From IMG/VR virus record IMGVR_UViG_2541047778_000015: a stretch of DNA of 40,861 bases. One strand, given 5' to 3'. Below are positions 1,290 through 40,861 of this stretch, piece after piece. Every line of letters starts with the position of its first letter. Within the stretch, counting starts at the first letter, position 1. The notes beneath the pieces were generated by a model. It made no database searches. It was given only the letters and a program-made list of their open reading frames with translations, and was not told the DNA's origin. Made by a program: the position numbers and the translations under genes. This stretch comes from a virus. Its lineage: Duplodnaviria > Heunggongvirae > Uroviricota > Caudoviricetes.

Positions 1290-1772
1290 CTATCTGGTCA
1301 GGGTGTCGTACTGTTTTTCGCAGACTCTTCCGGCTTCGGCTGCCCGGTCAGCATACTCTGCCAGTTGTCTGTTTCTCTCGAGAGATTTGCTGAGCACGTC
1401 GGCAAGCAAAACTCCGGTGTCTGCGGCTGACGACCCAGCGCCGACAATGGCGTTATACTGCCTGAGCTGCTCACGGATGGCAACGAGCTGTTGCTGCAAC
1501 CTGCCAGCGCGAGCGGCAGCATCAAGAGCATCGCTGCGCGCCTGATCGATCCTCTGCTGCGCTTCACGTTCATTGGTCGCTTTCTCCTGTTCGTAGTACT
1601 GACGAACTTTTTCTTCTTCGGCTTTGCGGTCTTCTTCCGCCTGCGCATACCCGGCATCGTACTGGCGACTGCCGTGTGCATTCCAGGCTACAACTCCTGA
1701 TATGACCAGAACAGCAAGCATCGCCATGATAACCAACTGTTTCCAGTATGCTTTTGCGAATGCCCAGATCAT
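1290..1772 (-). CDS. Rz-like i-spanin
   Basis: N-terminal transmembrane segment followed by a long charged coiled-coil-like region; immediately downstream of the endolysin with a 4-bp overlap; contains an embedded out-of-frame lipoprotein ORF. Confidence 0.7.
1298..1573 (-). CDS. Rz1-like o-spanin (lipoprotein) embedded in the +1 frame of Rz
   Basis: Frame embedded in Rz encodes [26 protein letters not shown] (signal peptide plus lipobox LAGC) followed by a Pro/Ser-rich short body; an alternative start is the ATG at 1531. Confidence 0.55.
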   Translation of the reverse strand: MNVKRSRGSIRRAAMLLMLPLALAGCSNSSLPSVSSSGSITPLSALGRQPQTPEFCLPTCSANLSRETDNWQSMLTGQPKPEESAKNSTTP

Positions 1773-2398
1773 ACCGCCAGCACCTTACTGGCAGTGATGT
1801 ATCGCGCGCGCCGGTCATCAATGCCGTTCCGGCCACCATTGATAAGCAGAGTTACACGTGCAATATCTCCGGTATACTTCATGCAGCCTTTGCTGGCGAA
1901 GAACCACGCCGCGCTACGAGCCGCATATTCGTCCTGCGCCAGCAGTTCAGGGCTCTCCAGCAGGTCAACCTTCAGACCGTTTCCGCAATCACGATAGTTA
2001 TTCAAACCGGTAATCTGGATAAGTCCGCGCCCTCGGTAATTCCAGCCATCACCAGGGGCATTGTTCCCCATGCGTTTGCTGTACACCAGATTGGCAATCG
2101 CTCTCTGGCGCTCAGGTGGCAATGGTGGTTCGCCTGCGCGTCGCCCCAATGCGTTGGCCTGTCCCTGAGTGAGACGCCCAGCCCGAACAAAGTTAGCCAG
2201 TCCGCTGACGCTGTAGTTGAAATTCTCCTGCAACCGGGTGAAGCCTCCAGACTCATGCCCGACCTGAGCAATAAACATAGCCTGATCTTCTGGTTTGCTG
2301 ATACCAAACTCTTTCATCGCAGAAGTTATATGCGAGAACCAGCGTGCGGCCAGTGCCTCGCTGATACCAGCAGCTCGCTGGAATTGTTTAATCTCCAT
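1769..2398 (-). CDS. Endolysin, glycoside hydrolase family 19 (chitinase-like) type
   Basis: Start taken at [11 protein letters not shown] (ATG at 2398) rather than the ORF-track upstream start; the translation reads like a GH19-type phage endolysin (called from recalled family resemblance). Confidence 0.75.
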
Positions 2399-2696
2399 GT
2401 TTAGACCTCGATACTTTGAAAATTTGAACGACGTTACCGCGCGTTTTAATAACCGCAGCAAGCATGACAGCGTTGATAATGACCTCGGATAAATCCACAG
2501 CCATTGGCGTACGTAACCAGATTGCATAGGCGACTCGAACAGGAATACTGGCCGCAGCAACAATCAGGAAATAAGCAAGCCATCCTCCCCACCTTCGGTG
2601 TTGAGAGCCGTTACGCCGGAATGTGACAACGCGAATTGCTATGCCAGTGCAAATAACTGCATTGGTGATAAGCAAAAAAAACTCATGCGTTACCAT
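2388..2696 (-). CDS. Holin-like small membrane protein
   Basis: 102 aa with about three hydrophobic helices and a charged C-terminus; overlaps the endolysin start by 11 bp. Confidence 0.55.
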
Positions 2697-3087
2697 CGTC
2701 TTTTCTCCCCGGAATTAACTCGCGTGGATTATCGGAACGGTGATAGAGCCATATACCAATACGCACAGCGACAATTGCTGACACGAATGCGCCTGCAGAG
2801 AAAACAATCCCTTTTTCAAAAGAGTCCTGCGTGATGGTAGGGATCAGGCTAGCTATGCCGATAAGAATTGATGCTGCTGGTTTGTAAAAGAGAAGGCCGC
2901 AAAGAAAGCTGAGCATCGACAGGAGCACCCGGCGACGGATGGGGTACTCTACTGCAGAGGTAACAAAAATCACCGCCCCAGCCAAAGCCCCTAAAGCAAC
3001 CTCCGGAGGGACACCTGCAATAACCGCAGCAAGAGAACCAAAACTAAGCAACTGATTTAATTGCTCACTTGTTACTTGAGCAGACAT
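2683..3087 (-). CDS. Holin/antiholin-like membrane protein
   Basis: 134 aa with several hydrophobic segments; first gene of the lysis cassette, overlapping the next gene. Confidence 0.5.
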   Translation of the reverse strand: MSAQVTSEQLNQLLSFGSLAAVIAGVPPEVALGALAGAVIFVTSAVEYPIRRRVLLSMLSFLCGLLFYKPAASILIGIASLIPTITQDSFEKGIVFSAGAFVSAIVAVRIGIWLYHRSDNPRELIPGRKDDGNA

Positions 3088-3368: not shown

Positions 3369-3395
3369 CCCGCAAAATATTGCGGGCTTTTTTTT
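3369..3395 (+). terminator. Plus-strand intrinsic terminator (hairpin plus T8) overlapping the tailspike stop codon
   Basis: CCCGCAA-aata-TTGCGGG followed by TTTTTTTT on the plus strand; the minus-strand reading lacks a U-tract, so it does not terminate the tailspike transcript. Confidence 0.6.
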
Positions 3396-6300
3396 AACGT
3401 TCTTCCAGAGACTGAATCCGCTCTTTTATCTTATCCATTTCTCTGCGCTGCCATGCTGCCTCGATATAGAATAAGAGATCAGGTCTGACCCCCCATCTAG
3501 ATCCTGCTGGCGTTATTTCAACGCGCTCAATGATGTCTTCCATTACCATCACTGGATTATCATCCTCATCAACAATGATGCTCCCGTCATTATCAGTCAG
3601 CGGAATTTCCCTTTGGCCAGTAATGACGTCATCATATACTGCGGGATAATCGTCATAGCAAAGAAAGGCATAGCGGCATGTTGTGCTTTCTTCTTCCATG
3701 AGTCCGTGAGAAATAAGAACATCACGAAGTTGCTGCGCGATTACACCATGATGTATCCTCGCCCCTTCTTCCCCCTTTATAGCGACAGCGTTCAGCCATT
3801 TATAAGCGATATACCTGACGTCACCCCAGGCATCCAGCAATGCTTCGTCAGGAGAGACCGGCTCTGTCTTTAATGTTCCGTCACTGGTAACCACAGGATT
3901 GGAGCCAAGATAAACTGTCGAGAACCTGTTTCCCGGACCACCAAGAGCATTTACATTATCAAGATAAGGTTTAACATCTCCGTTCTCAAAAAGATGTTCG
4001 AGTGCGTTATATACCGCGCGACGTGGAGTACTGCTTCTGGAACCATGCAACGTTATCATTGCACCATCTGCTGAAGACGTTGTTTCACCGCCGCTAACGA
4101 TTAATCTCTGAGCGGTAACATCATCAGACGGTACTTTCTTCGCAATAATGGCGTAATTACCCTCAAGTTTGACTTCCGCGCGAACTTGTCCTGATGTACC
4201 TGCATGGACAGTCAGTGACTGGACGGCAACATCATCTGTGAAATCAACGGGTACAGGAACCGTCCTCACGCCTGACGTCGACATAAAAGTAGGAAGCGTT
4301 CTGTTAGGAGTGGCTCCGTAGACAAAATCCCTTGAAACAAATTCTTCCTGTTTAATTTTCACCCTGAAACAATACAAATCAGCCGGGTGACCATCGTGAA
4401 CATAAGGATATTTTCTGTTGTTATCCCCTATGCTCCATGGGTTTAGAAAGTCTTCCCCACCGAAAATGTAGTACAGCCAGTTGTCTTTGATACAAACTGA
4501 ACCAACACCAACCGCAGAGTTAACTATTCCGCCCTGATAAATCTGATCAGTAACATTAACCCACTCTACATTATCCAGACTCCACTCATTGACGTTAACT
4601 CTGGTCATAAATGTTCTTGGATAATTTCCTGCATAACGGTTATCAGGTTCTCCTCCTTCCCACTCACCAAATGCGCGCTCACTGCCAAAAATAATCAGCT
4701 CATCGCCAACTTTGGCAAAAGGAAGGTTTGAGTGATGAACATTATTTGGGAAGCGAAGAGAATTCCATGATGTACCTAAATCAGAGCTTCTGTGCAATGA
4801 ACTACCGGGTTGAGTACTTAATGTCCCCCTGGTCGTCAGATACAGAATGCCATCATAATATTTTACACATGGCTCAGATGCATTCGCCTCATATTCTGCA
4901 GGTATGCGTCTGCGAACAAAGCTACCAGGAGAACCGAAAGCATCAGAGAAATAGAGTATCCCAAGCTCGCGTGGACCAATATCACCATTATGGTAGCCAA
5001 CAGCAAAACTGTTATCGCTAATCGTCGCAAAACTGTGAATCTCAGTAACAGGAGTGCTTCCGTCAACAAAAGAAGGAATAGTTCCAAGACTGGTTTTTCT
5101 CCATGGTGACGAGTGAAATGATGTACCAAAACTCCAGTATCTACCCTCGTTATTCTGATCCACATCCTGGGTATTTTGCGTCGTAACTGTAAAAGTATTT
5201 TTATCAATAACAGTAGTCACCGTCATATTCCCGGTAACACCTGTAACACCAGAGTTTGAGAAGTTGACAAAATCACCAGCAAATAATCCGTGATCAGTAA
5301 TGCGAATATAAGCGACTTGCTGATTTGCTGCTTTCGTTATACCACCATAAACGCGAAGGCTGCGACTCATTGGGCGATCCCACAACTCTGCAACCTGCAG
5401 TTTATTTCCGCTCACGGTCCGCGTCTCAATTACAGCAAAAAGGCGATTTCTGACAACCCCCATACTCATGCAGTGATAGTTAACTGTGGGATAGTTTTCA
5501 TGTAAATCTGTAAGCCATTCCGGCGTTGTCCAGGTCTTCCCGTCATCTCCTGAGCGAACCCATGCAACATGGAGGTTATTTACACCATGGCGGTCTCCAG
5601 CCATAAAAGGCGCATAGATGACATTGTCATATACAAACGTTTTATCCTGCGTCCAGGCGTTGTACCACGGTGTATCTGTAATTTTAAATAACTCTCCCTG
5701 GATAAAATCTTCAGAAGCATAAAAAAGAGGCTGACCCGGTATTCTCTCAAATAAAAAACGAGCATTTTTAAATCGGCTGACATCCGGAAGAGTTGATACT
5801 TTAAAAGTAAGCCCTAATCCGTCAATTTTATAACCTGGAGATGAGGCTTCAAGGCACGCGCTTATTGCAGTGGAATCGTCATTTATACCATCACCAACAG
5901 CTCCAAAATCTTTGGGGCTAATAGCATCACGCATTTTATCCTGGAACGTTCGGTACACAGCCCCAGAACCATACTGAATAAACCAACCAAAACCACCAAC
6001 AACCCCGGCGATTGCAGCATCGACATAATTACGCATTGAGCGATTATTTACAGCGTCCTGTTCAAGTGATGGATCTGCAAGGTTAGAAATTTTGTTTTGC
6101 TTTGCATCGTAATATTTTGCAAGCAAAGATGGTTTCATCAATGCACGTCTGAACCACCCAAAACATTGCTGGATCAGCATCGTCAGGTAGTCAAAAGCAT
6201 CTTCATGCACTTCGGGGAAAAATTTTCCCTGATTGCGAAGGTCTGTCTCCTGCACTACATCAAGCACACGATCTATCGTAATTCGCCATCCAGCAGCAAG

Positions 6301-6513
6301 CGGCGACGGAAGAACAACAGAACCGCCACTATAAGTGCCCGCCCCAGTTACCGTATAACCGGTATCCAGTACTAGTTCTGTTACGTTACCGTTAAGGTCA
6401 GACACCTGAACAACCAGGTCGGATTTTTTGAAAATACGGAAGGTATACGGAAATGATGTCGTAACGCCGTTACCAGTGTATTCGTTGTGGTCAACTTCGG
6501 TTGAGACCGTCAT
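3394..6513 (-). CDS. Tailspike / tail fibre with predicted C-terminal intramolecular chaperone domain
   Basis: 1039 aa; N-terminus resembles the T7 gp17-type adaptor domain; two Asp-box-like motifs (SGDDGKTW, SSDLGTSW); C-terminal ~160 aa resemble the peptidase S74 chaperone domain, with S-x4-K at VVTSDGTLK. Confidence 0.8.
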   Translation of the reverse strand: MTVSTEVDHNEYTGNGVTTSFPYTFRIFKKSDLVVQVSDLNGNVTELVLDTGYTVTGAGTYSGGSVVLPSPLAAGWRITIDRVLDVVQETDLRNQGKFFPEVHEDAFDYLTMLIQQCFGWFRRALMKPSLLAKYYDAKQNKISNLADPSLEQDAVNNRSMRNYVDAAIAGVVGGFGWFIQYGSGAVYRTFQDKMRDAISPKDFGAVGDGINDDSTAISACLEASSPGYKIDGLGLTFKVSTLPDVSRFKNARFLFERIPGQPLFYASEDFIQGELFKITDTPWYNAWTQDKTFVYDNVIYAPFMAGDRHGVNNLHVAWVRSGDDGKTWTTPEWLTDLHENYPTVNYHCMSMGVVRNRLFAVIETRTVSGNKLQVAELWDRPMSRSLRVYGGITKAANQQVAYIRITDHGLFAGDFVNFSNSGVTGVTGNMTVTTVIDKNTFTVTTQNTQDVDQNNEGRYWSFGTSFHSSPWRKTSLGTIPSFVDGSTPVTEIHSFATISDNSFAVGYHNGDIGPRELGILYFSDAFGSPGSFVRRRIPAEYEANASEPCVKYYDGILYLTTRGTLSTQPGSSLHRSSDLGTSWNSLRFPNNVHHSNLPFAKVGDELIIFGSERAFGEWEGGEPDNRYAGNYPRTFMTRVNVNEWSLDNVEWVNVTDQIYQGGIVNSAVGVGSVCIKDNWLYYIFGGEDFLNPWSIGDNNRKYPYVHDGHPADLYCFRVKIKQEEFVSRDFVYGATPNRTLPTFMSTSGVRTVPVPVDFTDDVAVQSLTVHAGTSGQVRAEVKLEGNYAIIAKKVPSDDVTAQRLIVSGGETTSSADGAMITLHGSRSSTPRRAVYNALEHLFENGDVKPYLDNVNALGGPGNRFSTVYLGSNPVVTSDGTLKTEPVSPDEALLDAWGDVRYIAYKWLNAVAIKGEEGARIHHGVIAQQLRDVLISHGLMEEESTTCRYAFLCYDDYPAVYDDVITGQREIPLTDNDGSIIVDEDDNPVMVMEDIIERVEITPAGSRWGVRPDLLFYIEAAWQRREMDKIKERIQSLEER

Positions 6514-6616
6514 GTTAAATCTCCAGATAGTCGCAGCACCCGTTGCGCCGCATATCTGGTTATTCTATTACCTGAAAAACCACATATGGATAGAAAGACT
6601 GTGAATACGAATAGAT

Positions 6617-6633
6617 ATTACCTTTCGGGTAAT
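6617..6633. promoter_or_regulatory. Operator-like site ATTACC-tttcg-GGTAAT
   Basis: 17-bp palindrome of the recurring family; intergenic, between the tailspike start and the LexA box. Confidence 0.5.
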
Positions 6634-6669
6634 TTGCAAAACGTGCTGGATAGCAAACAAATTATTTGA

Positions 6670-6689
6670 TACTGTATAAATATACAGTT
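6670..6689. promoter_or_regulatory. LexA (SOS) box
   Basis: TACTGTATAAATATACAGTT: CTGT-N8-ACAG with an AT-rich spacer, close to the consensus TACTGTATATATATACAGTA; lies 20 bp upstream of the 6709 start and overlaps a TATAAAT -10-like hexamer. Confidence 0.7.
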
Positions 6690-6708
6690 ATTGCATGGAG
6701 AAGATAAG

Positions 6709-6966
6709 ATGCAGCAGTATCACTATCCACTGGAAGACGGATTTACCGAAAGGATTCACACGCCGGGAGGCGTCAGATCACTGGTGGAGGGATCGCACTT
6801 GATGAAATTACTCCGGGATCTCGATAAGGATGGATTTAATGTCGATGGCCCACTTGCCGAACTGACTGCACTGATTAACTACGTCACCAGCTCACAGATG
6901 TCTATGCAGGATCTGCAAACACATCTCGACTATTGTGCCGAACAATTACGAAAACAAACCACATAA
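6709..6966 (+). CDS. Small protein homologous to the shared antirepressor C-terminal module (candidate SOS-inducible antirepressor)
   Basis: ATG at 6709 with GGAG 8 nt upstream (ORF track used TTG at 6691); the 85-aa product aligns with the C-termini of the 8112 and 10849 genes. Confidence 0.55.
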   Translation: MQQYHYPLEDGFTERIHTPGGVRSLVEGSHLMKLLRDLDKDGFNVDGPLAELTALINYVTSSQMSMQDLQTHLDYCAEQLRKQTT

Positions 6967-6990
6967 AGAAAAGGCCGCTCTAGCGGCCTA
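6967..6990. terminator. Hairpin between convergent genes (bidirectional terminator candidate)
   Basis: GGCCGC-tcta-GCGGCC with an A-run upstream (U-run for the minus-strand transcript). Confidence 0.45.
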
Positions 6991-7716
6991 TCGTTTCGCT
7001 TTGTGCTCGTCCCAGCACGTTTTGCACCATGCCATTAAGCCGTCCGCATTTTGATTATTAGGGTAAAAGCTAGTTCGTTTTCTGCGGACATTACAAATTG
7101 GGCACCACTTCATATGGCGTGTATTCTTTGGGCCATCGAGACACCTTGCACACCACTTAGTCAATCCATCTGGATTTTTTGACGATTTCCTGAATTTTTC
7201 ATATGGAAGGTTTATTCTGCATCGCAAGCACTGCTTGCTACCACTTGAAACTCTGTTAGCTGATTCTTCTTTTGGCGGCGATACAGAAGGTATTCTTGCT
7301 GGCTCTGATACTGCCTGAGGTGCTTTTTTAGATGACTGAGACGATATGTCATCACCAGGGAATCTTCCATGATATGCCGGACGCGTTGACACTCCGGGTG
7401 GAAGCTCAGCTGTAAACGGCTTTGGCTGAATCAGTTGCCTCTCTTTTGCTAACTCCTGCTGTTTATAATATGTCTGGATTACCGCGCTATCATAAGCAGG
7501 AGGTACGGAAATATTAGGCGCATTATCTCCCGTTTTTTGAAACTGAGTGGAGGTGTGTTCTATCACCTGTGTACGATTAATCGTTATCTCCCCATCTTCA
7601 GTCTTTATCGTTTTGTTATGATTAACGACCGTACGATCAGAGATCTTAGTCTTGTTCTGGTTGATAACGTAAATAATCACCGCAACCACACCAACAACTA
7701 CCCAGAAAACTTCCAT
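6988..7716 (-). CDS. Membrane-anchored protein with tandem Cys-rich (zinc-ribbon-like) repeats, unknown function
   Basis: N-terminal TM helix (MEVFWVVVGVVAVIIYVI); C-terminal repeats SKNPDGLTKWCARC and NQNADGLMAWCKTC plus further CxxC pairs. Confidence 0.55.
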   Translation of the reverse strand: MEVFWVVVGVVAVIIYVINQNKTKISDRTVVNHNKTIKTEDGEITINRTQVIEHTSTQFQKTGDNAPNISVPPAYDSAVIQTYYKQQELAKERQLIQPKPFTAELPPGVSTRPAYHGRFPGDDISSQSSKKAPQAVSEPARIPSVSPPKEESANRVSSGSKQCLRCRINLPYEKFRKSSKNPDGLTKWCARCLDGPKNTRHMKWCPICNVRRKRTSFYPNNQNADGLMAWCKTCWDEHKAKR

Positions 7717-7845: not shown

Positions 7846-7960
7846 TTTACATCGCACTCCTCTTGTGCCATAGTAATCGGGCACTGGCAAAATCCAGTGC
7901 CGGGATTGGTCTCCCGGATTACTACAGAGGCACATATGCCGCATAAGCGGTTTTTTTATG
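7838..7960 (+). ncRNA. Candidate structured small RNA or leader/attenuator upstream of the Bro-N antirepressor
   Basis: Outer helix AGTAATC/GATTACT encloses hairpins GGCACTGG-caaaat-CCAGTGCC and GGGA-ttggtc-TCCC; followed by GCCGC-ataa-GCGG plus T7. Confidence 0.4.
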
Positions 7961-8111
7961 TGTAAAGCGCACCTATTCTATGGTGGGCTGTGTGGGGGCA
8001 CCGAAAGGTGCGCCGGGTTCCTTTGTAGCCGGTAAGACCAACTCTGCACAGTTCACCACCATCTGATTGGTCTCAGCGGTGGTGATTAACCTAACTACAA
8101 AGGTGATCGCC

Positions 8112-8804
8112 ATGAATACCAAACCTTCCATCTTTTCCTTTGAGTCATCCTGCCAGATCCGTATGTTCATGATTGACGGAGAACCTTGGTTTGTCACCAA
8201 AGATGTGTGCAATGCTTTGAATATTGATGTTACACAAGCGAGAAAACTTGATAAAAAAGGCTGGAACAAAAAGGGGCTGTATTCAATACAGACCCCTGGT
8301 GGAATACAAGAACTATCCATCGTTTCAGAATCAGGTCTCTACATCCTTATTCTGCGTTGCAAAGAGGCAATGACTGAGGGAACGAGAGCATTCAGATTTC
8401 TTGAATGGGTTACAGGTGAGGTTCTTCCTCAGATCCGCCGCACCGGAAGTTACATTAAAAACTCGCTCCCGCAGGAAGAACGCATAAAGATGGTTGCCGA
8501 CCAGGTAGCCAACGCCACAGCATCAGCAGTGATGCAGGCAATGAAGATAGAGAACAAAACCTACAGTGCCCCACTGAAGCCCGGCTACCGCAGCCTGATT
8601 CATTCTCCGTCTGGTGTTCTCGGCCTGACGGAGAACTCATTGCTTATGAATCTGCTAAACCAGTTACAGGAAGACGGGCACGACGTATCGGGCGCGGCGG
8701 CGGAGCTGACCACCATGTTCTGCTACATCGTCGGTGTGAGCAAATGCCTGCGTGATATCCAGACCCACGCGGAGTACATCAACGACAAGGCAGGGTTCTT
8801 CTGA
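8112..8804 (+). CDS. Antirepressor with Bro-N/KilA-N-type N-domain and shared C-terminal module
   Basis: Start at MNTKPSIFSF (ATG 8112); the N-terminal segment IRMFMIDGEPWFVTKDVCNALNI is Bro-N-like; the last 77 aa are identical to the C-terminus of the 9911..10849 product. Confidence 0.7.
   Translation: MNTKPSIFSFESSCQIRMFMIDGEPWFVTKDVCNALNIDVTQARKLDKKGWNKKGLYSIQTPGGIQELSIVSESGLYILILRCKEAMTEGTRAFRFLEWVTGEVLPQIRRTGSYIKNSLPQEERIKMVADQVANATASAVMQAMKIENKTYSAPLKPGYRSLIHSPSGVLGLTENSLLMNLLNQLQEDGHDVSGAAAELTTMFCYIVGVSKCLRDIQTHAEYINDKAGFF
8571..8804 (+). repeat. Inverted-repeat copy A (codes the shared 77-aa C-terminal module)
   Basis: Reverse complement matches 9911..10144 with about a dozen single-base differences by hand alignment, all synonymous. 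Confidence 0.8.
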
Positions 8805-9910: not shown

Positions 9911-10144
9911 TCAGAAGAACCCTGCCTTGTCGTTGATGTATTCCGCGTGCGTCTGGATATCACGCAGGCATTTGCTCACACCAACGATGTAGCAGAACAT
10001 GGTGGTCAGCTCCGCCGCCGCGCCCGATACATCGTGCCCGTCTTCCTGTAACTGGTTCAGCAGATTCATCAGCAGTGAGTTCTCCGTCAGGCCGAGAACA
10101 CCCGACGGCGAATGAATCAGACTGCGGTAGCCTGGCTTCAATGG
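9911..10144 (-). repeat. Inverted-repeat copy B (codes the shared 77-aa C-terminal module)
   Basis: See copy A at 8571..8804. Confidence 0.8.
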
Positions 10145-10849
10145 ATAACCATAACATTTTGTCTGTGTTTTAATTGCCTCACGAAGCGCATCTAACATCT
10201 TGACTGCCACTTCATCATTCTCTGATGCAGATCCAGCAGGGAGATACTCCCCTTCAAGCGGAACCCGAGCAACAAGAGACAACGCTTCGGCAAATTGATC
10301 TTCACCAATTTCTTTGTACGAACAGCCAAAATGAGATTTCAGTGACGACCACATGGTGATCATCGCCTTAGCCTGTTTTTCTTTTGGCAGAGACTGACCG
10401 CGACTCATGACGAGTTGTTTAATGGCTTCCTGCTGTTCAGTTGTTATTTTACCCGGCAACGCCTTTTTAGCTTTGCGTGGGTTAACCACATGGCCTTTAG
10501 TCCAGTACTCGTAGAGCACATCGTCACACTCTTCCTGATACTGGATTACCTTGTCGCGGATTTCAGGGCGGACTTTGTTAGGGCTGATGCTGTTCAACCA
10601 AGCTGCCAATTTTCGTAAAGCCATACAAATCATGGCTTGCACCCCACCGGCAGAAGGTATGGTGATTTCCACCATACCCTTCGAGAAGCGTTGAGAAATC
10701 TTCTTATGTTGAGATTTCCAGTCTAGCCCCATTCCCTCAACGATAGGTTTCATTGGGGTATACGGTTCGCCGTTGTGATTGACAACATAAAGCTCTGCGC
10801 CGTGGAATGGCACGTTGATAGTAGATACTGCTGTTGCTATACTCGTCAT
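9911..10849 (-). CDS. Antirepressor with P22 Ant-type N-domain and shared C-terminal module
   Basis: N-terminus YVVNHNGEPYTPMKPIVEGMGLDWKSQHKKI resembles the P22-type antirepressor N-domain; last 77 aa identical to the 8112..8804 product; sits downstream of an Arc-like gene as in P22 immI. Confidence 0.7.
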   Translation of the reverse strand: MTSIATAVSTINVPFHGAELYVVNHNGEPYTPMKPIVEGMGLDWKSQHKKISQRFSKGMVEITIPSAGGVQAMICMALRKLAAWLNSISPNKVRPEIRDKVIQYQEECDDVLYEYWTKGHVVNPRKAKKALPGKITTEQQEAIKQLVMSRGQSLPKEKQAKAMITMWSSLKSHFGCSYKEIGEDQFAEALSLVARVPLEGEYLPAGSASENDEVAVKMLDALREAIKTQTKCYGYPLKPGYRSLIHSPSGVLGLTENSLLMNLLNQLQEDGHDVSGAAAELTTMFCYIVGVSKCLRDIQTHAEYINDKAGFF

Positions 10850-10898
10850 GTCGTTAATTCCTATACGTAGTTTTACGATACTGAAGCCCTGACGGTCT

Positions 10899-10912
10899 GG
10901 CCACCGTGGGGC
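10899..10912. promoter_or_regulatory. Mnt-operator-like near-palindrome (GGCCACCGTGGGGC)
   Basis: Contains CCACGGTGG on the opposite strand, the core I recall from the P22 mnt operator; second copy at 11104..11118. Confidence 0.4.
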
Positions 10913-10921
10913 TTCGCTGTT

Positions 10922-11089
10922 TTATGCCACGCTATTCTTCTCACCAGTGAGTCCATACACTTTCCTCAGCTGATAGATAATCTCTGTATTGAACTTTCGG
11001 CATTCTTTTTCGCCATTTCTTTCAATAGCTAACTTCACATCGTCCGGAAAACGAACTCGTCGTTGACACATCTCTTTTGCTTTTTGCAT
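10922..11089 (-). CDS. Arc-like ribbon-helix-helix repressor
   Basis: Start at MQKAKEM with AGGAG 7 nt upstream (ORF track used GTG at 11110); RVRFPDDVKLAIERNGEKECRKFNTEIIYQL parallels the P22 Arc RHH region. Confidence 0.6.
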   Translation of the reverse strand: MQKAKEMCQRRVRFPDDVKLAIERNGEKECRKFNTEIIYQLRKVYGLTGEKNSVA

Positions 11090-11103
11090 TTCATATCTCC
11101 TTA

Positions 11104-11118
11104 GCCCCACCGTGGGGC
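11104..11118. promoter_or_regulatory. Mnt-operator-like near-palindrome (GCCCCACCGTGGGGC) in the arc/ant promoter region
   Basis: Perfect outer arms GCCCCA/TGGGGC; lies between the divergent mnt-like and arc-like genes; related CACACCGTG and CACACGGTG elements at 11130..11163. Confidence 0.45.
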
Positions 11119-11209
11119 AAAATAATTGTCACACCGTGCGTCATTGATGTCAAGCACACGGTGAGGCATACTTCAATCATTGCAAGTAACTCAATATTTG
11201 GTGAAGAAC

Positions 11210-11641
11210 ATGAGCAGAGAAGATCCACAACTAAGGATCAGACTTCCCGTCGAAGTAAAAGAAAAAATAGAAATTTCTGCAAAAGCCAATAAGCGATCAA
11301 TGAACGCTGAAATAGTACAACGTCTTGACACCAGCTTTCTGAAAGATATTCATGAAGATGACGTAATTTCTGCTTATGAAGCAAAAATCATTGCAAACAA
11401 TGCACGACATGAAATATCAAATATTATTTTCAAAAGAACCTTTAATGAAATTAATAAGAAAATAACACTTGGACATACAAGTTTTTATATAAACCTTAAT
11501 GACCTTGAACTGGAATCACTTGCAGATAATGATTACCAGATCATCTTTGAAAAAACATTTAATAGGCTCAATGAACTAGGTTACATCATCTGTGAAAACT
11601 CATGGGATGCAGATGGTTTTGGAATTGAAATACCTGAATAG
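11210..11641 (+). CDS. Mnt-like ribbon-helix-helix repressor with C-terminal extension
   Basis: MSREDPQLRIRLPVEVKEKIEISAKANKRSMNAEIVQRL parallels the P22 Mnt N-terminus as recalled; 143 aa, longer than the Mnt I recall. Confidence 0.65.
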   Translation: MSREDPQLRIRLPVEVKEKIEISAKANKRSMNAEIVQRLDTSFLKDIHEDDVISAYEAKIIANNARHEISNIIFKRTFNEINKKITLGHTSFYINLNDLELESLADNDYQIIFEKTFNRLNELGYIICENSWDADGFGIEIPE

Positions 11642-11731
11642 GAAGAACAAAAGGCGTGTACATATTACACGTCTTTAATACAATTGAAAAACGCCACATT
11701 ACTGATGTATGTTACAACAAGGAGCGATATT

Positions 11732-12295
11732 TTGAAAACCATATCTATATTAAAGGTTGCATTAGGCGTCGCTATTATTTTGACTCTCTCAATATTGTTT
11801 TATTTTTACCACAAACAAACTGCTATTGCTCTTGATAGTCACGCGGCAAACTCATTTTTCTCAGAGTACATAGTGCCGCTATCAGGAAGCGGTATAACAA
11901 ATAAATATACTGACTATGACATCAAATATGGAATTGATGATGGGGAGACTATTGTATTACATGTAATCATTAAAAACCTAATGACAGTAAATAAAAATAC
12001 AGACTTCAACGATAAAAATACAATACATCACAACAACAGCAAAACATTAATTTCTTATAGTAGCAACATCTATACGGATAAATACCTAAAATACATATCA
12101 GAAGATACAATAAAAGAAACCCGCGAAAAGTTAAAAAACATATATTGTGCATCCGGCAGTTTTCACAAATTATCGCCGCAAGAGCGTTTATTCTACGAAG
12201 CAAGAAAACAACGTAAGTCAATAATATTACATTATTATGCTGATTCAGGGGAGACACTCATATTTAATATTGGGGTTTCCCCTGAATCATGCTAA
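11732..12295 (+). CDS. AT-rich accessory gene, membrane-anchored protein of unknown function
   Basis: TTG start with AGGAG 8 nt upstream gives MKTISILKVALGVAIILTLSILFYFY (signal anchor); AT-rich by eye compared with the flanking genes; ORF track begins at 11684. Confidence 0.5.
   Translation: MKTISILKVALGVAIILTLSILFYFYHKQTAIALDSHAANSFFSEYIVPLSGSGITNKYTDYDIKYGIDDGETIVLHVIIKNLMTVNKNTDFNDKNTIHHNNSKTLISYSSNIYTDKYLKYISEDTIKETREKLKNIYCASGSFHKLSPQERLFYEARKQRKSIILHYYADSGETLIFNIGVSPESC
12241..12289. repeat. Perfect 12-bp inverted repeat with 25-nt spacer at a convergent gene junction
   Basis: TGATTCAGGGGA ... TCCCCTGAATCA. Confidence 0.5.
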
Positions 12296-12306
12296 AGGTG
12301 TTTAAC

Positions 12307-18604: not shown

Positions 18605-19068
18605 TATTTTCTCTCCATGTGAAATCTGTGGAAATTAAGACCAAGAGCACCATAAGGCGCGGCTTCTTCAAGCCTGAATCCAAGCCAGTGCAGCCATGCT
18701 TTGGCAACATGGTTTCGCTCGTCGACGTAGTTTTCCAGGCGCGGATAAACTGCCAGCATCTGCTGCAATACAGGGCGGCAGTGGCGAAGAAATGTCTTCT
18801 GATATTTTTCAATACGGCTGGTCCCGACCAGCCAGGGCGTACCATTGCCACCGATCATTGACGCCGGAGATACACCAAACATGGTTACCAGTTCTCCGTT
18901 CGCGAACCCTGACCAGGCCATAGTCGCAGTGCGAAGACCAACACGCAGCGCATCTTCGGTAGTCATCAGCGATACCGCATACAGTTCGTCAATATCAGCC
19001 TGACGAACATCCGGCAAAATCATCTGAAGATGCTCTTCGGTAGCGGGAATAATTCGAACATCGATCAT
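18604..19068 (-). CDS. Virion-associated hypothetical protein
   Basis: 154-aa ORF tightly packed between the tail and internal virion genes. Confidence 0.5.
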   Translation of the reverse strand: MIDVRIIPATEEHLQMILPDVRQADIDELYAVSLMTTEDALRVGLRTATMAWSGFANGELVTMFGVSPASMIGGNGTPWLVGTSRIEKYQKTFLRHCRPVLQQMLAVYPRLENYVDERNHVAKAWLHWLGFRLEEAAPYGALGLNFHRFHMERK

Positions 19069-21539
19069 CAGAATCCCCCAACAGTAAGGCGAGGAATAAC
19101 GGCAAGAACAGACAGTGGCAACGGGTCAAGCTGACGGATTCTTACACGTCCGTTTTTGCCCCAGTTACTGTCCAGTTTCACTTCTACTTTTCCGGTAGCA
19201 TCATCAACAGGATCATCGTAGAACTCGAATTCACGCTGTGGATATTCGTACCATTTACCGCCGGGCGTAGTCGCCCAGATGCCGCGACTGGCATTCACAA
19301 CCAGAGTAACGGACGGGATCACCTGTTTTTTGTCCAGCAGCGTTTCCTGTCCGTTAATGTTGATATCCAGTGTTTCGAATTCAGCAGTTATTGGCAGGCC
19401 GATGTGCACAACAGCCCCAGGTGATTCCAGCGTGACGGCACCTCCGGAAACCACTTTCTGTGGTTCCACGTTCGCATCAGAGAGAATGTTTACGGTCTGG
19501 CCTTCAAGATGAGACAGGCCTCCAAATGTCCGGCGCGCCATCTGCCAGTTCGTGGTGGCCACATTCCTGAGGGATGGCGGGACGTTCCTGTTAGCACGAA
19601 CCACTACAGCGGTGTTGCTGGTTACAGAAATAATGTCGCAACGTAATTCTTTTGACACCTCATCGCCAGTATCAGGATCAGTTCCGGTATAAGGGAACTG
19701 TAGTTGCGCGCCGACATCACTACTGGTGAAGTACGCACCACCAGAAACACTGATTGTATATTCCGCGCGGTAATCCCATTCGCCAGAACCACCAGTGATG
19801 ATCATCGTTCTGTCAGACGTATTTCTTCCATCATAGCTAAGGCCAGAATCAACAAAGAAAGCATCTTCATCGCTGGTAAATAAACGGCTGGACAGTCGCT
19901 CGATGTATCTCACTGTTTGCCCGTTAACGGTTCGGTTAACGACGAAATACACCGCATCTTCATTGCCTTCGCTGATACTGCATGTGCTTTCATATTTTCC
20001 GGTACTGGATTGTGGTGCCCATGCAAAAACCTGCTGATCACGCAAATAGGTCATCACCAGTAATTTACCGTCATCACGAATGCAGAAGGCACTGGAGTAA
20101 GGGACAATCGAGAAGCACCAGTCAACAATGCTGTGCTTCTGAAAAAGATGATTGGCAAGGATGGTCAGGTCGTTCCCCTGATAGCCGTCAACATCGAATG
20201 AGTAGGCCAGATCACGGACAACACTGCCTTTCTCCTGGACGAACAGAGCAATATTCGCCACGGCAATTGGTGGGACATTGCTCGAGCCATTTGATCCCTG
20301 AGAGCTGAATGCAAATGATGATGGGGTAAGCACTTTGTTCTGGTCGCCAGTGATGACGTACTCACCTCCGGAAGTCAGCGCCACCAGCGAACCAACATCA
20401 ATCAGGTGACGGATCTCATTAACCTGACGCCCGGCATAGGTGTAGATAATTCTGTCGTCATCCTGCGTAGGATTGCTTTTGCCAAAATCCTTATAATCCC
20501 CGGTACGGCTGGCCCAGATAGTCTGAGGGAACGCAGTCGATGCGGCGAAGTAAAGACGCTGTTGATAATAAACAACAGTGCCAGGATAACCATTAACACT
20601 GTTCCAGGCATATTTAGCCCATTTATAGCTGGCATTATCCTCGCCCACGACCTGCGAAGGGATATAGGAAATCACCTCGGCAGTTGCAGTAGTTCCATTT
20701 GCAGCAGTGATACGGGCAATGCCAAAACCACTGTGCAGATATTCCCACTCAATGCCGGTATCATCATCACCGGATCCGCCCCAGCCATCCCATGATGTGC
20801 CTTCTGTATGCGAAGGGCGCAAAGTGCCTGTTTTGCCTACTGTAACGGCGCGATAGTAGTTACTGTCTGCACGGCGAATATCGCCAATTGACGTACTCTT
20901 ACTGGTTTCCCATACCGGCACAGAATCCACTGCAGGCTGTTCCAGATAGAACAATTTGCCTACCTGCTCCGCGCCAAAAATAGAGGCGCTTGCCGTTAAC
21001 GTAATTGTCCCGGTGCTGGCGCTGGCATAAACCGTCACTGACTCGTCAATATTGATATCTTCAAATGGCCCGTTCTTCGTTACCACATCAACCAGTTGCC
21101 AGTTGTCATGCGCGTAGCGGCGCAACTCTTTCGGCGGGTATGCCGGGTGAACAAGCGTAAGCACGTCGGCGCTTTGCGTGAATTTAATTCGGAACAGATC
21201 GGCTTCAGTATATGGCGTGGCAATTTCATAAATAACATTGCTGCTGTTCAGCACCAACGCACCATCTTTGATAACGCGCATGTACTGGTGCCCGAACTCC
21301 AGAGCATAGGTCTGAACCGTCGAGAACTGGAACGGGATCAGGCGGCATTTCCGATTTGGGTATTTGGCGGCACCGACAAAACGCGTACCAGGTCGATTCT
21401 CAACTCCGCCATACTGCCGCACGATAAAGTTATCGCACTTGCGCAATGCCACCTGGTACTTCGCCATGTCAATACGACCGTACAACGACGGTCCAATCTC
21501 ACCACCGGCAAAGCTGGGCTGGATCCAACTGATAGCCAT
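19068..21539 (-). CDS. Tail nozzle / tail tubular protein B-like structural protein
   Basis: 823 aa; size and position after a ~200-aa adaptor gene match the podovirus tail-tube pair; assignment is by position and size only. Confidence 0.55.
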   Translation of the reverse strand: MAISWIQPSFAGGEIGPSLYGRIDMAKYQVALRKCDNFIVRQYGGVENRPGTRFVGAAKYPNRKCRLIPFQFSTVQTYALEFGHQYMRVIKDGALVLNSSNVIYEIATPYTEADLFRIKFTQSADVLTLVHPAYPPKELRRYAHDNWQLVDVVTKNGPFEDINIDESVTVYASASTGTITLTASASIFGAEQVGKLFYLEQPAVDSVPVWETSKSTSIGDIRRADSNYYRAVTVGKTGTLRPSHTEGTSWDGWGGSGDDDTGIEWEYLHSGFGIARITAANGTTATAEVISYIPSQVVGEDNASYKWAKYAWNSVNGYPGTVVYYQQRLYFAASTAFPQTIWASRTGDYKDFGKSNPTQDDDRIIYTYAGRQVNEIRHLIDVGSLVALTSGGEYVITGDQNKVLTPSSFAFSSQGSNGSSNVPPIAVANIALFVQEKGSVVRDLAYSFDVDGYQGNDLTILANHLFQKHSIVDWCFSIVPYSSAFCIRDDGKLLVMTYLRDQQVFAWAPQSSTGKYESTCSISEGNEDAVYFVVNRTVNGQTVRYIERLSSRLFTSDEDAFFVDSGLSYDGRNTSDRTMIITGGSGEWDYRAEYTISVSGGAYFTSSDVGAQLQFPYTGTDPDTGDEVSKELRCDIISVTSNTAVVVRANRNVPPSLRNVATTNWQMARRTFGGLSHLEGQTVNILSDANVEPQKVVSGGAVTLESPGAVVHIGLPITAEFETLDININGQETLLDKKQVIPSVTLVVNASRGIWATTPGGKWYEYPQREFEFYDDPVDDATGKVEVKLDSNWGKNGRVRIRQLDPLPLSVLAVIPRLTVGGF

Positions 21540-22144
21540 CAGGACAACCTCGCAATGGCAAACTCGTCAACCGGTGGCAGTGGTTCCTGTGATTCATTCT
21601 GGCTATGCGAGCCAGCACTAAGAATCACGCGATTGTACATATTGAGGGCAAACGTACCGAGGTCTGCATTCCCAGTCAGCGCCATGTTAATAGCTGCCGC
21701 AAGACGCCAGGCCAACGCCTCCATAAAAATGGCATCAAACATGTTCACATCTGTAACGCGAGATACATACTTGAGCCATGCCTGCGGCTGGTCTGTGTAG
21801 ATCAACTTTCCTGTTCCGTTGGTGTCTGCACCAACTTCGTACTGAACGCGCATTGCTGCTGTTGGATTGCGTACACCAGGAAGCATAATTTCAGTAATGC
21901 GCAGACAATCGGACGGGTACTGGTACGCATATTCCCAGTCAGGCGGTGGATTGCTCGTATCTGCAAGCGCCACGCGTTTGGTAGCAAAGTTCCAGTCAAA
22001 ATCAGAAAGCACAGCATCACGGCAGGCCTCAAAGTGCAGCGAACATTCCCCCGCTTCCTTGCTGGCTTCCGTCAGGCTGTTAATACTGCGGCTGTTGCCA
22101 ATATTGGACAGCGCACGATTGCAGATCTCTACTACAGAGGCCAT
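21539..22144 (-). CDS. Tail adaptor / tail tubular protein A-like
   Basis: 201 aa, stop/start overlap with the following 823-aa gene. Confidence 0.45.
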   Translation of the reverse strand: MASVVEICNRALSNIGNSRSINSLTEASKEAGECSLHFEACRDAVLSDFDWNFATKRVALADTSNPPPDWEYAYQYPSDCLRITEIMLPGVRNPTAAMRVQYEVGADTNGTGKLIYTDQPQAWLKYVSRVTDVNMFDAIFMEALAWRLAAAINMALTGNADLGTFALNMYNRVILSAGSHSQNESQEPLPPVDEFAIARLS

Positions 22145-27355: not shown

Positions 27356-27432
27356 GTGGCATTAGCTCAGTCGGACAGAGCAACCGCCTTCTAAGCGGTT
27401 GGTCGCAGGTTCGAATCCTGCATGCCACGCCA
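27356..27432 (+). tRNA. tRNA-Arg (anticodon UCU)
   Basis: Hand-folded cloverleaf: acceptor GTGGCAT/ATGCCAC, D-stem GCTC/GAGC, anticodon stem ACCGC/GCGGT with loop CTTCTAA, T-arm GCAGG-TTCGAAT-CCTGC, 3' CCA encoded. Confidence 0.8.
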
Positions 27433-39604: not shown

Positions 39605-40861
39605 TTATTTATTACTGTCTTCCATCCACTTCTCAAACTTCGACGGGGAGAACGGAATCAGATCCGTATGCTCCCCGTTAATCCAGGAATCAATCATATC
39701 GGCCCACTGCTGCAACATGTAGGCGCGCTGTCTGGCGTATTCCGCTTTGTTATATACGGCGCGCACACCTTTCTGCTCATGTGCCAGAGCCTTTTCAATC
39801 CAGTCTGAAGGATAACCAGCCTCATGCAACAACGTACTGGCTGTACGGCGCATATCATGTACAGTGAAGTCCTGAATATACTCACCATCTTCATTTATTA
39901 TTTTCACCGTTCTGTCGATCAGAGAGTTCAGTGCGGCATTAGATAATGGCTTCCGGAAATTGTAACGACCAGGAACCAGATATTCACTTCCACCAGCGCA
40001 CATCTGCAACCCAACCAATATATCCTGTGCCTGTTTTGGCAGGTAAATAACGTGCGCCCGGCTTCCCTTCATGCGGTCTGAAGGAATTGTCCATGTCCAT
40101 TTTTTAAAATCTATTTCGTCCCACGTTGCATTGGTGAATTCGCCTTTACGAACCATAGTGATAAGCACCAGTTTTAAAGCCATTTTCATAGTGCCCATAG
40201 CACCAATGGCATCCAGCGTGCGGAAGAAAAGACCAATTTCTTCTGGTGTCAGCGTTCGCTCTCGTGGTTTAAATATGGCGATAGACGAAGGCTTAATATC
40301 AGCCGCAGGATTAAACAAACCATGACCGCGGTCATTGGCGTGACGGTATACGCTGCTGATGATCTCCCTGGCCTGCACTGCTGTTGCCCGGCCACCGCGT
40401 TCGACAATCCGGTCACACAAATCACGAACCATCGATGTGGTAATTTCAGCCATCATTTTGTTGCCAAGAACCGGAAGTATGTCACGGTCGATCACCGCCT
40501 GCTTCATTGCGCGGGTACTGTCAGCCAGGATGACGTGTTTCATATAACTGTCGGTATGTACCGCAAACGTCTCGGCACCACGAATCTTTTTGATACCGTC
40601 ACGTTTAGCCGCAGCCGGCGACTGGCCTGCTTTAAGCAACTTCTTTGCAGCAATCAGTTCTTCCCGCGCTTCTGCCAGGCTGATACCGTCACGCCCATAC
40701 TGCCCGATTACCAGTGTTTCGCGGCGACCGTTGATACGGTAGTCATAGCGAAACGAGACCGTACCTGACGTAAGCACAGCTACATACAGCCCGTCACGAT
40801 CGGAGACCTTGTACAGTTTGTCCTGCGGCTTGAGGTTTTTTAATTTTGTATCGGTAAGCAC
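39605..40861 (-). CDS. Tyrosine integrase (P4-type), N-terminus at the window edge
   Basis: N-terminus LTDTKLKNLKP ... DGLYVAV (arm-binding domain); C-terminal catalytic region with HDMRRT and conserved Tyr region; the ORF runs to the last base of the window. Confidence 0.85.
   Translation of the reverse strand: MLTDTKLKNLKPQDKLYKVSDRDGLYVAVLTSGTVSFRYDYRINGRRETLVIGQYGRDGISLAEAREELIAAKKLLKAGQSPAAAKRDGIKKIRGAETFAVHTDSYMKHVILADSTRAMKQAVIDRDILPVLGNKMMAEITTSMVRDLCDRIVERGGRATAVQAREIISSVYRHANDRGHGLFNPAADIKPSSIAIFKPRERTLTPEEIGLFFRTLDAIGAMGTMKMALKLVLITMVRKGEFTNATWDEIDFKKWTWTIPSDRMKGSRAHVIYLPKQAQDILVGLQMCAGGSEYLVPGRYNFRKPLSNAALNSLIDRTVKIINEDGEYIQDFTVHDMRRTASTLLHEAGYPSDWIEKALAHEQKGVRAVYNKAEYARQRAYMLQQWADMIDSWINGEHTDLIPFSPSKFEKWMEDSNK

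Follow-up and report, generated by a model that had tools for sequence, protein, structure and literature searches.

The minus-strand gene at positions 3394..6513 of the window (the whole stretch of phage DNA that we analysed, 40,861 nt in length) very probably encodes the single tailspike of a temperate podovirus of the epsilon15-like (Uetakevirus) group, a homotrimeric endo-alpha-2,8-sialidase of family GH58 that works in four parts. In the mechanism that we propose, the beta-sandwich and helical neck formed by residues 1 to ~200 would dock the trimer at the adaptor-nozzle junction, in the manner of T7 gp17 and the Carin-1 fibre. Residues 205-721 would bind the polysialic-acid capsule of Escherichia coli K1 and cut it internally, at an active site made up of E547, R562 and R613, and cleavage of the capsule would allow the virion to tunnel to the outer membrane. 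Residues 722-876 would form an interdigitated triple-beta-helix stalk, and residues 877-1039 would be its intramolecular chaperone and nucleate the folding of the stalk into a trimer. Folding of the stalk would then bring R863, S877 and K882 together, and the protein would cut itself between T876 and S877, which would free an 18.7 kDa fragment and leave a kinetically stable 97 kDa spike.

Endosialidases are the classic capsule-degrading enzymes of phages. They set host range on neuroinvasive E. coli K1, and they serve as reagents for the removal of polysialic acid.

Reading frame, catalytic propeller and predicted substrate

The gene consists of one ATG-to-stop reading frame of 1039 codons plus the stop codon, which the ORF list and the domain and PDB matches together identify as an endosialidase with an N-terminal adaptor and a C-terminal self-cleaving chaperone. 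A Shine-Dalgarno sequence, GGAG, lies 9 nt before this start codon, and apart from the initiator there is no Met within residues 1-60. Short ORFs of 86-97 aa on the plus strand within the gene are without support, and we took them to be chance ORFs. An initial annotation of this DNA, made from its letters alone, had listed the reading frame and several motifs in it, all of which are real and lie where it placed them: the Asp-box SGDDGKTW at residues 321-328 (5530..5553), the Asp-box SSDLGTSW at residues 576-583 (4765..4788), and VVTSDGTLK at residues 874-882, which puts a serine at position 877 and a lysine at position 882. The range 3397..3885, given there for the C-terminal domain, is exactly residues 877-1039. 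A search of the protein against NCBIfam assigned no family; on a 99.8% identical gene, PGAP has placed the label 'endosialidase catalytic beta-propeller domain-containing protein'.

Judged by its sequence, the protein is a bona fide GH58 endosialidase. All four Pfam endosialidase domains, and Peptidase_S74, score above their cut-offs. The N-terminal extension domain of endosialidases occupies residues 205-271 (5701..5901; PF12218, 109.6 bits, E = 5.9e-32) and is followed by the six-bladed catalytic GH58 beta-propeller at residues 272-721 (4351..5700; PF12217, E = 1.4e-233), where the match, at 774.9 bits (cut-off 24), covers the full model from 1 to 367. Inserted in the propeller is a beta-barrel at residues 383-465 (5119..5367; PF12195, 155.7 bits, E = 3.2e-46). 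The crystal structures of endoNF (1V0E/3GVL) match residues 205-876 with E = 0, and the phi92 endosialidase (4HIZ) matches the protein with E = 1.4e-271. At the level of single residues, E547 (4873..4875), R562 (4828..4830) and R613 (4675..4677) align to Glu581, Arg596 and Arg647 of endoNF, which have been named as its active-site triad (PMC2955717). All three are conserved, as is H309, which aligns to endoNF H350.

The two Asp-boxes align column for column with SGDDGQTW and SRDIGQTW of endoNF. When the protein was shuffled 20,000 times, at least one S.D.G..W motif arose in 0.9% of the shuffles, and two or more arose in none. These motifs had been read initially as the mark of a sialidase-like beta-propeller, a reading that the PF12217 and endoNF matches bear out and extend, since what is present goes beyond 'sialidase-like' and is the endosialidase propeller itself.

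EndoNF, which is gp17 of the T7-like coliphage K1F (PDB 1V0E, 3GVJ-L, 3GW6), has the same architecture as the window spike, running from a T7-type N-domain through the extension, the propeller with its barrel and the stalk to the C-terminal chaperone. The two proteins are 70% identical in amino acids over the propeller, 56% over the stalk and 54% over the chaperone, but only about 21% in an alignment of the N-terminal 200 residues; all functional residues that we mapped are conserved. The window spike differs by two insertions, one of 7 residues (FVDGSTP) that follows S481 and one of 8 residues in the chaperone domain. EndoNF also comes from a lytic T7-like phage, whereas the window spike belongs to a temperate epsilon15-like prophage.

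Going by its characterised homologues, the enzyme would be specific for alpha-2,8-polysialic acid, the capsule of E. coli K1. The initial annotation had held that receptor specificity could not be read from the sequence, but here it can, because the propeller and barrel (residues 272-721) are 100% identical in amino acid sequence to SiaK1, the endosialidase of phage CUS-3, for which the GenBank record lists endo-alpha-sialidase activity with direct-assay evidence (PMID 16689790). Phage vB_EcoP_ZX5, the owner of a gene with 99.2% nucleotide identity, plaques on an O87:H52:K1 host, and the serotype-labelled carriers among the matches listed are K1 strains (e.g. O1:K1:H7 and O2:K1:H7 APEC). Residue Q853 of endoNF, which we take to be part of the polysialic-acid-binding site in its stalk, is replaced by Met in the window spike and in CUS-3 too.

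Virion-binding module and putative docking partners

Residues 1-196 (5926..6513) form a virion-binding module of the epsilon15-like (Uetakevirus) tailspike type, as identified by DNA identity to Uetakevirus, by a match to Carin-1, and by an AF2 model searched with Foldseek. Over this module and the 300 nt upstream of it, the DNA has 96.4-96.5% identity to the tailspike genes of HEMP4 and Phi05_1387 B (Uetakevirus), which have other receptor-binding domains behind the common N-terminal module. At the protein level, identity is 94.6% to HEMP4 over residues 1-203, and 67% to each of TL-2011b and Tyrion (by tblastn against phages). Alignments with Uetakevirus tailspikes diverge after about residue 196, and the proteins that a homologue search with the module brought up were all short (346 aa at most) and for the most part partial. 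More distantly, residues 1-211 are homologous to the D1 beta-sandwich and D2 coiled-coil of Dpo31/Dpo36 from Carin-1, a podovirus of Cobetia marina (PDB 8CK1, 28LX, 28MG; E = 1e-35 for the module against D1-D2). The receptor-binding/catalytic domain of Carin-1 Dpo31 is unrelated to the window spike, being a depolymerase for the host exopolysaccharide.

The N-terminus had been described initially as an adaptor domain of T7 type, a description that holds for the fold and is sub-threshold for the sequence. In the sequence, Phage_T7_tail (PF03906) stays below its cut-off (16.5 bits against 25.2, E = 0.0069), and an hhalign comparison of the module with the N-domains of T7 and K1F gave P = 0.007 and an HHsuite probability of 5%, although with a co-linear alignment. 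For the fold, we used an AF2 model of residues 1-204 as a monomer, which is confident only for residues 9-82 and unreliable past residue 87. The confident part belongs to a beta-sandwich (about residues 8-87, 6253..6492; pLDDT 85-92), and after it comes the helical neck, of which the monomer model gives no reading because the neck needs the trimer. When the model was searched against the PDB with Foldseek, the N-domains of podovirus fibres came out on top, with T7 gp17 among them (8dsp_E, 7.5e-5; 7ey9_a, 1.6e-4; 7boz_a, 7.7e-4; all at probability 1.0), and 9jz0_b matched at 1.2e-3, also with probability 1.0. Over the beta-sandwich, the predicted fold matches those of the N-domains of T7 gp17 and the Carin-1 fibre.

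An N-terminal domain with no relationship to the T7 gp17 adaptor, for which 'T7-type' would be a misnomer and which would attach in some other way, would agree with the PF03906 score below the gathering threshold, the hhalign probability of 5%, and the 13-18% identity to T7 gp17 in structural alignments. We consider this unlikely. The top 20 Foldseek matches are all podovirus tail-fibre N-domains or tail complexes, with six T7 entries among them at probabilities of 0.99-1.00; the sequence alignments, though weak, stay co-linear for 125 columns and have a DA..N.I.NL motif in common; the adaptor, nozzle and fibre each have their counterpart among the three partners of a single solved complex; and the tail genes of the window stand in T7 order.

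That solved complex is 8CK1 of Carin-1, and by the matches to it, the same phage encodes both of the partners that a T7-type fibre has. A tail adaptor (connector) of 201 aa is located at 21539..22144 on the minus strand (Carin-1 connector 8ck1_E, E = 3e-26) and also matches phrog_394 'tail protein' and phrog_9239 'tail tubular protein'. A tail nozzle of 823 aa is located at 19068..21539, also on the minus strand (Carin-1 nozzle 8ck1_A, E = 1.8e-217 over residues 2-822). Both are putative docking partners of the spike N-domain, with a docking geometry that may resemble that of the characterised homologues. Beside them are T7 gp14-family and SLT-containing internal virion proteins, so that the order that agrees with T7 is adaptor, nozzle, a putative 154-aa internal virion protein, a gp14-like protein and two large internal virion proteins, of which one contains the SLT and one matches a PHROG internal virion family with an endolysin domain.

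Stalk, chaperone and predicted self-cleavage

The stalk of the mature spike (triple beta-helix and beta-prism) comprises residues 722-876 (3886..4350; PF12219, 261.3 bits, E = 4.5e-78). It is followed by the C-terminal intramolecular chaperone/autoprotease domain (Peptidase S74, CIMCD) at residues 877-1039 (3397..3885; PF13884, 3GW6). Over residues 877-937 the Peptidase_S74 match (PF13884) reaches 41.4 bits, with the cut-off at 22, and residues 757-1038 match 3GW6, the structure of the stalk and chaperone of endoNF, with E = 6.9e-94, in agreement with the initial assignment of the C-terminal ~160 aa to a chaperone of endosialidase type. This chaperone domain of endosialidases is the prototype of a self-cleaving domain that is found also in the human transcription factor MYRF.

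The alignment to 1V0E stops exactly at T876, which corresponds to T910 of endoNF. Immediately after it, S877 (3883..3885) and K882 (3868..3870) align to endoNF S911 and K916, and in the stalk R863 (3925..3927) aligns to endoNF R897. In two papers on MYRF that cite the work on endoNF, S911 and K916 of endoNF are given as a catalytic dyad and R897 as a key arginine (PMC8326128, PMC3742443), with a role for R897 in self-cleavage (PMC8326128). S877 is the predicted nucleophile in the window spike and K882 the predicted general base. The two residues had been picked out initially by their Ser-x4-Lys spacing, and they are indeed in register with the endoNF dyad, but the bare spacing is uninformative because S-x4-K occurs 5 times in the protein against ~2.4 times expected by chance; it is the alignment to the dyad that counts. 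By analogy with the characterised homologues, cleavage is predicted at T876|S877 and would free 163 aa with a computed mass of 18.7 kDa, in place of the ~17 kDa first suggested, and the mature spike (residues 1-876) would have a mass of 97.0 kDa.

We also considered an endosialidase whose C-terminal domain stays on, either as a chaperone only or through inefficient cleavage. As this would allow, the last 14 residues of the window spike differ from those of CUS-3, and over the domain the identity to endoNF is no more than 54%. Yet the dyad of S877 and K882 is conserved in register, as is R863, the homology reaches residue 1038 of 1039, and self-cleavage is the rule in the family, where even the distant Carin-1 Dpo31 likewise frees an 18 kDa C-terminal domain (D4). 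Retention of the domain is therefore very unlikely, and we continue to favor its release.

Mosaic structure and distribution among K1 prophages

The gene is a mosaic, in which the Uetakevirus N-terminal module is joined to a catalytic and chaperone block of CUS-3 type (99.5% nucleotide identity). The CUS-3-like block is 2393 nt long (3423..5815, about residues 233-1030) and has 99.5-99.6% DNA identity to siaK1 of CUS-3. Between the module and this block is a junction segment (residues 197-232, 5818..5925) in which the endosialidase N-terminal extension begins and GAVGDGINDD is found. Neither donor has matching DNA there: nucleotides 589-698 of the gene have no BLASTN match in CUS-3, HEMP4 or Phi05_1387 B. 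The protein that this segment encodes is End_N_terminal-like and diverged from CUS-3. The receptor-binding/chaperone block is 99.5% identical to CUS-3, whereas for the epsilon15-like backbone the identity to the nearest relatives is only 95-97%. On balance we favor a three-part mosaic that arose when two temperate podoviruses, unrelated but often resident in the same K1 chromosome, recently exchanged DNA, and in which the 36-codon junction came from a third endosialidase lineage.

CUS-3 (CP000711) is a P22-like phage (Lederbergvirus) and, like the window phage, is found in K1 host strains. Over about residues 233-1028, its SiaK1 is 99% identical to the window spike (8 differences in 796 residues), and the stalk is 99.4% identical; the two proteins have their catalytic residues, stalk and chaperone in common. 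They differ in residues 197-232 and in the last 14 residues, and their N-terminal modules are unrelated, being of P22 gp9 type in CUS-3 and of epsilon15/T7 type in the window spike. Downstream of the spike gene, CUS-3 has neuO with heptanucleotide repeats, whereas the window has lysis genes without repeats, and no CUS-3-like neuO contingency locus (AAGACTC repeats) is present beside the spike in the window. In many K1 strains (e.g. IHE3034, APEC O18, EC69, MS20659 and N21) the two prophages occur together and each has a copy of the block, so the spike modules could keep being homogenised by recombination.

The window is a prophage in an E. coli chromosome, with an att core at 1163-1179 and an integrase at its right end, and outside the spike gene it has the full complement of Uetakevirus genes, running from lysis genes to integrase. 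The spike gene occurs full-length, at 99% or more, in 72 complete E. coli genomes, and the block is present in 181 genomes. Maintenance of the gene is not universal, because in a few genomes it is interrupted by insertion sequences (IS3-family elements in 23CRST038 and SF-088), and a few genomes have fragments of the spike block only. These interruptions and fragments might point to a decaying prophage remnant that no longer makes a functional spike, but that is extremely unlikely for a window with an intact, Shine-Dalgarno-preceded ORF, every functional residue conserved and the rest of the gene set complete, when 72 complete genomes have the gene at full length and a 99.2% identical gene serves a plaque-forming, lysogenising phage (ZX5).

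The spike is already known, from a near-identical gene that is widely annotated and described in the published phage ZX5. In vB_EcoP_ZX5 the same gene, with 99.2% nucleotide identity over its full length (~0.8% nucleotide differences), is in the same place beside holin and endolysin genes, and the neighbouring accessory genes are partly different. The ZX5 spike was described in 2022 as a T7-like tail-fibre N-domain followed by an endosialidase and an endosialidase intramolecular chaperone (PMC9782041), and the relationship to CUS-3 is not mentioned in the available text of that paper. The finding is correct but ordinary, as annotations of a virtually identical gene already exist in many genomes and in a published phage, and the window copy adds nothing new on mechanism. 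It is of modest value as a clean case in which prophages of the same K1 lineages, one epsilon15-like and one P22-like, have exchanged a receptor-binding module, which is relevant to the prediction of phage host range from modular spike genes.

Endosialidase and chaperone domains of the spike

The tailspike (spike) is encoded by a single long ORF of 1039 aa at 3394..6513 (-), with a GGAG 9 nt upstream of its ATG, from which we count residues, and no second Met in residues 1-60. The initial annotation had described a T7-type N-domain, an Asp-box propeller and a predicted self-cleaving C-terminal chaperone, and its sequence observation is confirmed: the motifs SGDDGKTW (321-328), SSDLGTSW (576-583) and VVTSDGTLK (874-882) are located where it placed them, and its numbering of Ser877 and Lys882 is correct. 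Two Asp-box matches were seen in none of 20,000 shuffles of the spike, and one match in 0.9%. The S-x4-K spacing is uninformative by itself, because it occurs 5 times in the spike (about 2.4 expected), so the S877/K882 pair counts solely because of its position in the alignment described below.

A Pfam search found the full endosialidase domain set, with all matches far over the curated cut-offs: End_N_terminal (residues 205-271, E = 5.9e-32), End_beta_propel (272-721, E = 1.4e-233), End_beta_barrel (383-465, E = 3.2e-46), End_tail_spike (722-876, E = 4.5e-78) and Peptidase_S74 (877-937, E = 1.7e-10). Among PDB sequences, endoNF, the endosialidase gp17 of coliphage K1F (1V0E, 3GVJ/K/L), matches residues 205-876 with E = 0, and the alignment stops exactly at T876, which corresponds to endoNF T910, the final residue of the mature spike in the crystal. 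A match to the phi92 endosialidase (4HIZ) has E = 1.4e-271, and 3GW6, a structure of the endoNF stalk and chaperone, matches residues 757-1038 with E = 6.9e-94. The beta-propeller and S74-type chaperone proposed initially are thus borne out.

We mapped functional residues in an alignment of the spike, the full-length endoNF encoded by the K1F genome, and SiaK1, the endosialidase tailspike of the P22-like prophage CUS-3. All seven are conserved between endoNF and the spike: H350 (H309 in the spike), the active-site triad given for K1F in PMC2955717, E581 (E547), R596 (R562) and R647 (R613), then R897 (R863), S911 (S877) and K916 (K882). The accounts of endoNF in PMC8326128 and PMC3742443 describe S911/K916 as an indispensable Ser-Lys dyad and give R897, in the triple beta-helix, a key role in cleavage, so the proposed match of Ser877/Lys882 to this dyad holds. 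Cleavage would yield a mature spike of residues 1-876 (97.0 kDa) and a fragment of 163 residues, whose computed mass of 18.7 kDa is slightly above the ~17 kDa suggested earlier. By analogy with these characterised homologues, the spike is expected to be enzymatically active and autoproteolytic. The initial interpretation is supported, with two qualifications, which concern the label of the N-domain and the specificity.

Adaptor-like N-terminal domain

The label 'T7-type' is sound at the level of fold and fails at the level of Pfam membership: the N-domain scores 16.5 bits against PF03906, below the gathering score of 25.2, so we rejected assignment to that family. In a profile-profile comparison the N-domains of T7 and K1F align weakly with it (P = 0.007), although the alignment is co-linear over 125 columns with a common DA..N.I.NL motif. 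Clear sequence relatives are the tailspikes of epsilon15-like phages (HEMP4, 94.6%; TL-2011b, 67%; Tyrion, 67%), and the domain is properly classed as the Uetakevirus spike N-module. A more distant relative is the tail fibre Dpo31/Dpo36 of the Cobetia marina podovirus Carin-1 (E = 1e-35 over residues 1-211); the Dpo31 crystal structure, as outlined in PMC13317679, has a beta-sandwich D1 (residues 8-87) touching the virion and a three-helix coiled-coil D2.

When residues 1-204 were modelled with AlphaFold2, a confident beta-sandwich was obtained at 9-82 (pLDDT 85-92); the helical part of the model is unreliable, as expected of a monomer. A Foldseek search of the PDB with the modelled N-domain placed podovirus tail-complex fibre N-domains at the top, including Carin-1 (5e-11), T7 gp17 (8dsp_E, 7.5e-5; 7ey9_a, 1.6e-4; 7boz_a, 7.7e-4), PhiM1, LME-1, Kp9, Kp7, HRP29 and P-SCSP1u, all with probability 1.0. 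Elsewhere in the window, a 201-aa protein matches the Carin-1 connector (8ck1_E, 3e-26) and an 823-aa protein matches the Carin-1 nozzle (8ck1_A, 1.8e-217); T7 gp14-family and SLT-containing internal virion proteins follow, in the order of the T7 genes. The fold matches, the connector and nozzle homologues and this gene order together argue that the N-domain works like the T7 gp17 adaptor, of which it is very probably a remote homologue. Its docking geometry would be that of the characterised homologues.

The surrounding prophage

A complete epsilon15-like prophage makes up the window. Phage homology starts at 1163-1179, the site of the published attP core ATTGAGTGGGAATGATT, and the integrase is at 39605..40861. 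Lysis genes (1290..3087) adjoin the spike gene. A GC-rich hairpin (CCCGCAAAATATTGCGGG) at 3369..3386, 8 nt past the spike stop codon, has its T-run exclusively on the plus strand; acting as a terminator, it would therefore stop transcripts from the lysis-gene side and not that of the spike. Also adjoining the spike is a 242-aa ORF (6988..7716, -), kept in related prophages, with a hydrophobic N-terminal segment and a Cys-rich C-terminus that has faint matches to endonuclease VII, Stc1 and Lar-like zinc-finger families.

Rfam places isrK (7881-7957, +) and a C4 antisense RNA (7976-8063, +) directly upstream of a BRO-N/antirepressor ORF (8067..8804), and a sar RNA (10851-10918, +) beside a P22_AR_N antirepressor ORF (9911..10849), which points to two separate antisense-controlled antirepressor modules between the spike and tail genes. 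A low-GC island at 11000..12300 (0.35 versus about 0.48 window-wide), with genes for a ribbon-helix-helix protein resembling Arc (11180..11641) and for a protein of 203 aa (11684..12295, phrog_8033), is possibly a moron. A phage-borne tRNA-Arg (anticodon TCT; 27356..27432, +) is flanked by the packaging genes and the portal gene; it is annotated too in the related FDAARGOS_1301 prophage (NZ_CP070111.1 4850470-4893589). There, the peptidase, portal and neighbouring genes occur twice, about 40.6 kb apart, flanking the spike region, with one peptidase copy frameshifted. The arrangement suggests either a tandem double lysogen or a duplication arising in the assembly.

Substrate, distribution and mosaic origin

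Contrary to the initial annotation, the sequence does reveal receptor specificity: the propeller (residues 272-721) is 100% identical to that of the CUS-3 endosialidase tailspike (stalk, 99.4%), whose GenBank record lists endo-alpha-sialidase activity with IDA evidence (PMID 16689790). Phage vB_EcoP_ZX5 also has a tail gene with 99.2% DNA identity to the full-length spike gene; according to PMC9782041, ZX5 was isolated on an O87:H52:K1 strain, where it forms plaques and lysogens. K1 is the capsule type of the complete-genome carriers with a listed serotype, including O1:K1:H7 and O2:K1:H7 APEC. Together these observations give alpha-2,8-polysialic acid (the K1 capsule) as the predicted substrate.

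The endosialidase block (2393 nt, 3423..5815, -) is present at ≥95% identity in 194 of 5426 complete E. coli genomes (≥99% in 185 of them). There are 263 places altogether, and 181 of the 194 genomes have one place covering at least 80% of the block; 72 genomes have the full epsilon15-type spike gene. IS3-family insertions split the endosialidase gene in NZ_AP045810.1 (3431618-3435323) and NZ_CP012635.1 (1490380-1494025), which suggests that the spike is occasionally inactivated in lysogens.

The spike gene itself is already known: the NCBI pipeline names it 'endosialidase catalytic beta-propeller domain-containing protein', and Li et al., in the consulted part of their ZX5 paper (PMC9782041), give the same three-part reading as the initial annotation. 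That part of their description does not state the near-identity to CUS-3 or the mosaic structure. The 300 nt upstream of the gene and codons 1 to ~196 (5926..6813) are 96.4-96.5% identical to the Uetakevirus (epsilon15-like) phages HEMP4 and Phi05_1387 B, whose spike genes run on into unrelated receptor-binding domains, and codons ~233-1030 (3423..5815) are 99.5-99.6% identical to CUS-3 siaK1. Neither CUS-3 nor the Uetakevirus donors match codons 197-232 (5818..5925), which form the start of the endosialidase N-terminal extension and encode GAVGDGINDD, or the final 29 nt of the gene. Judged by these DNA matches, the spike gene is a mosaic of three parts.

CUS-3-type and epsilon15-type copies occur on one chromosome in several strains, among them IHE3034 (copies at 2.717 Mb and 2.884 Mb), APEC O18, EC69, MS20659 and N21. 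In the two-copy chromosomes NC_017628.1 (IHE3034), NZ_CP006830.1 (APEC O18), NZ_CM128670.1, NZ_CP082073.1 (MS20659) and NZ_CM165899.1, the paired copies are about 167-169 kb apart in four of the five and about 1.87 Mb apart in MS20659. Co-resident prophages offer an obvious arena for the exchange of spike modules, and this spike is a textbook example of spike module swapping, not a new kind of system.
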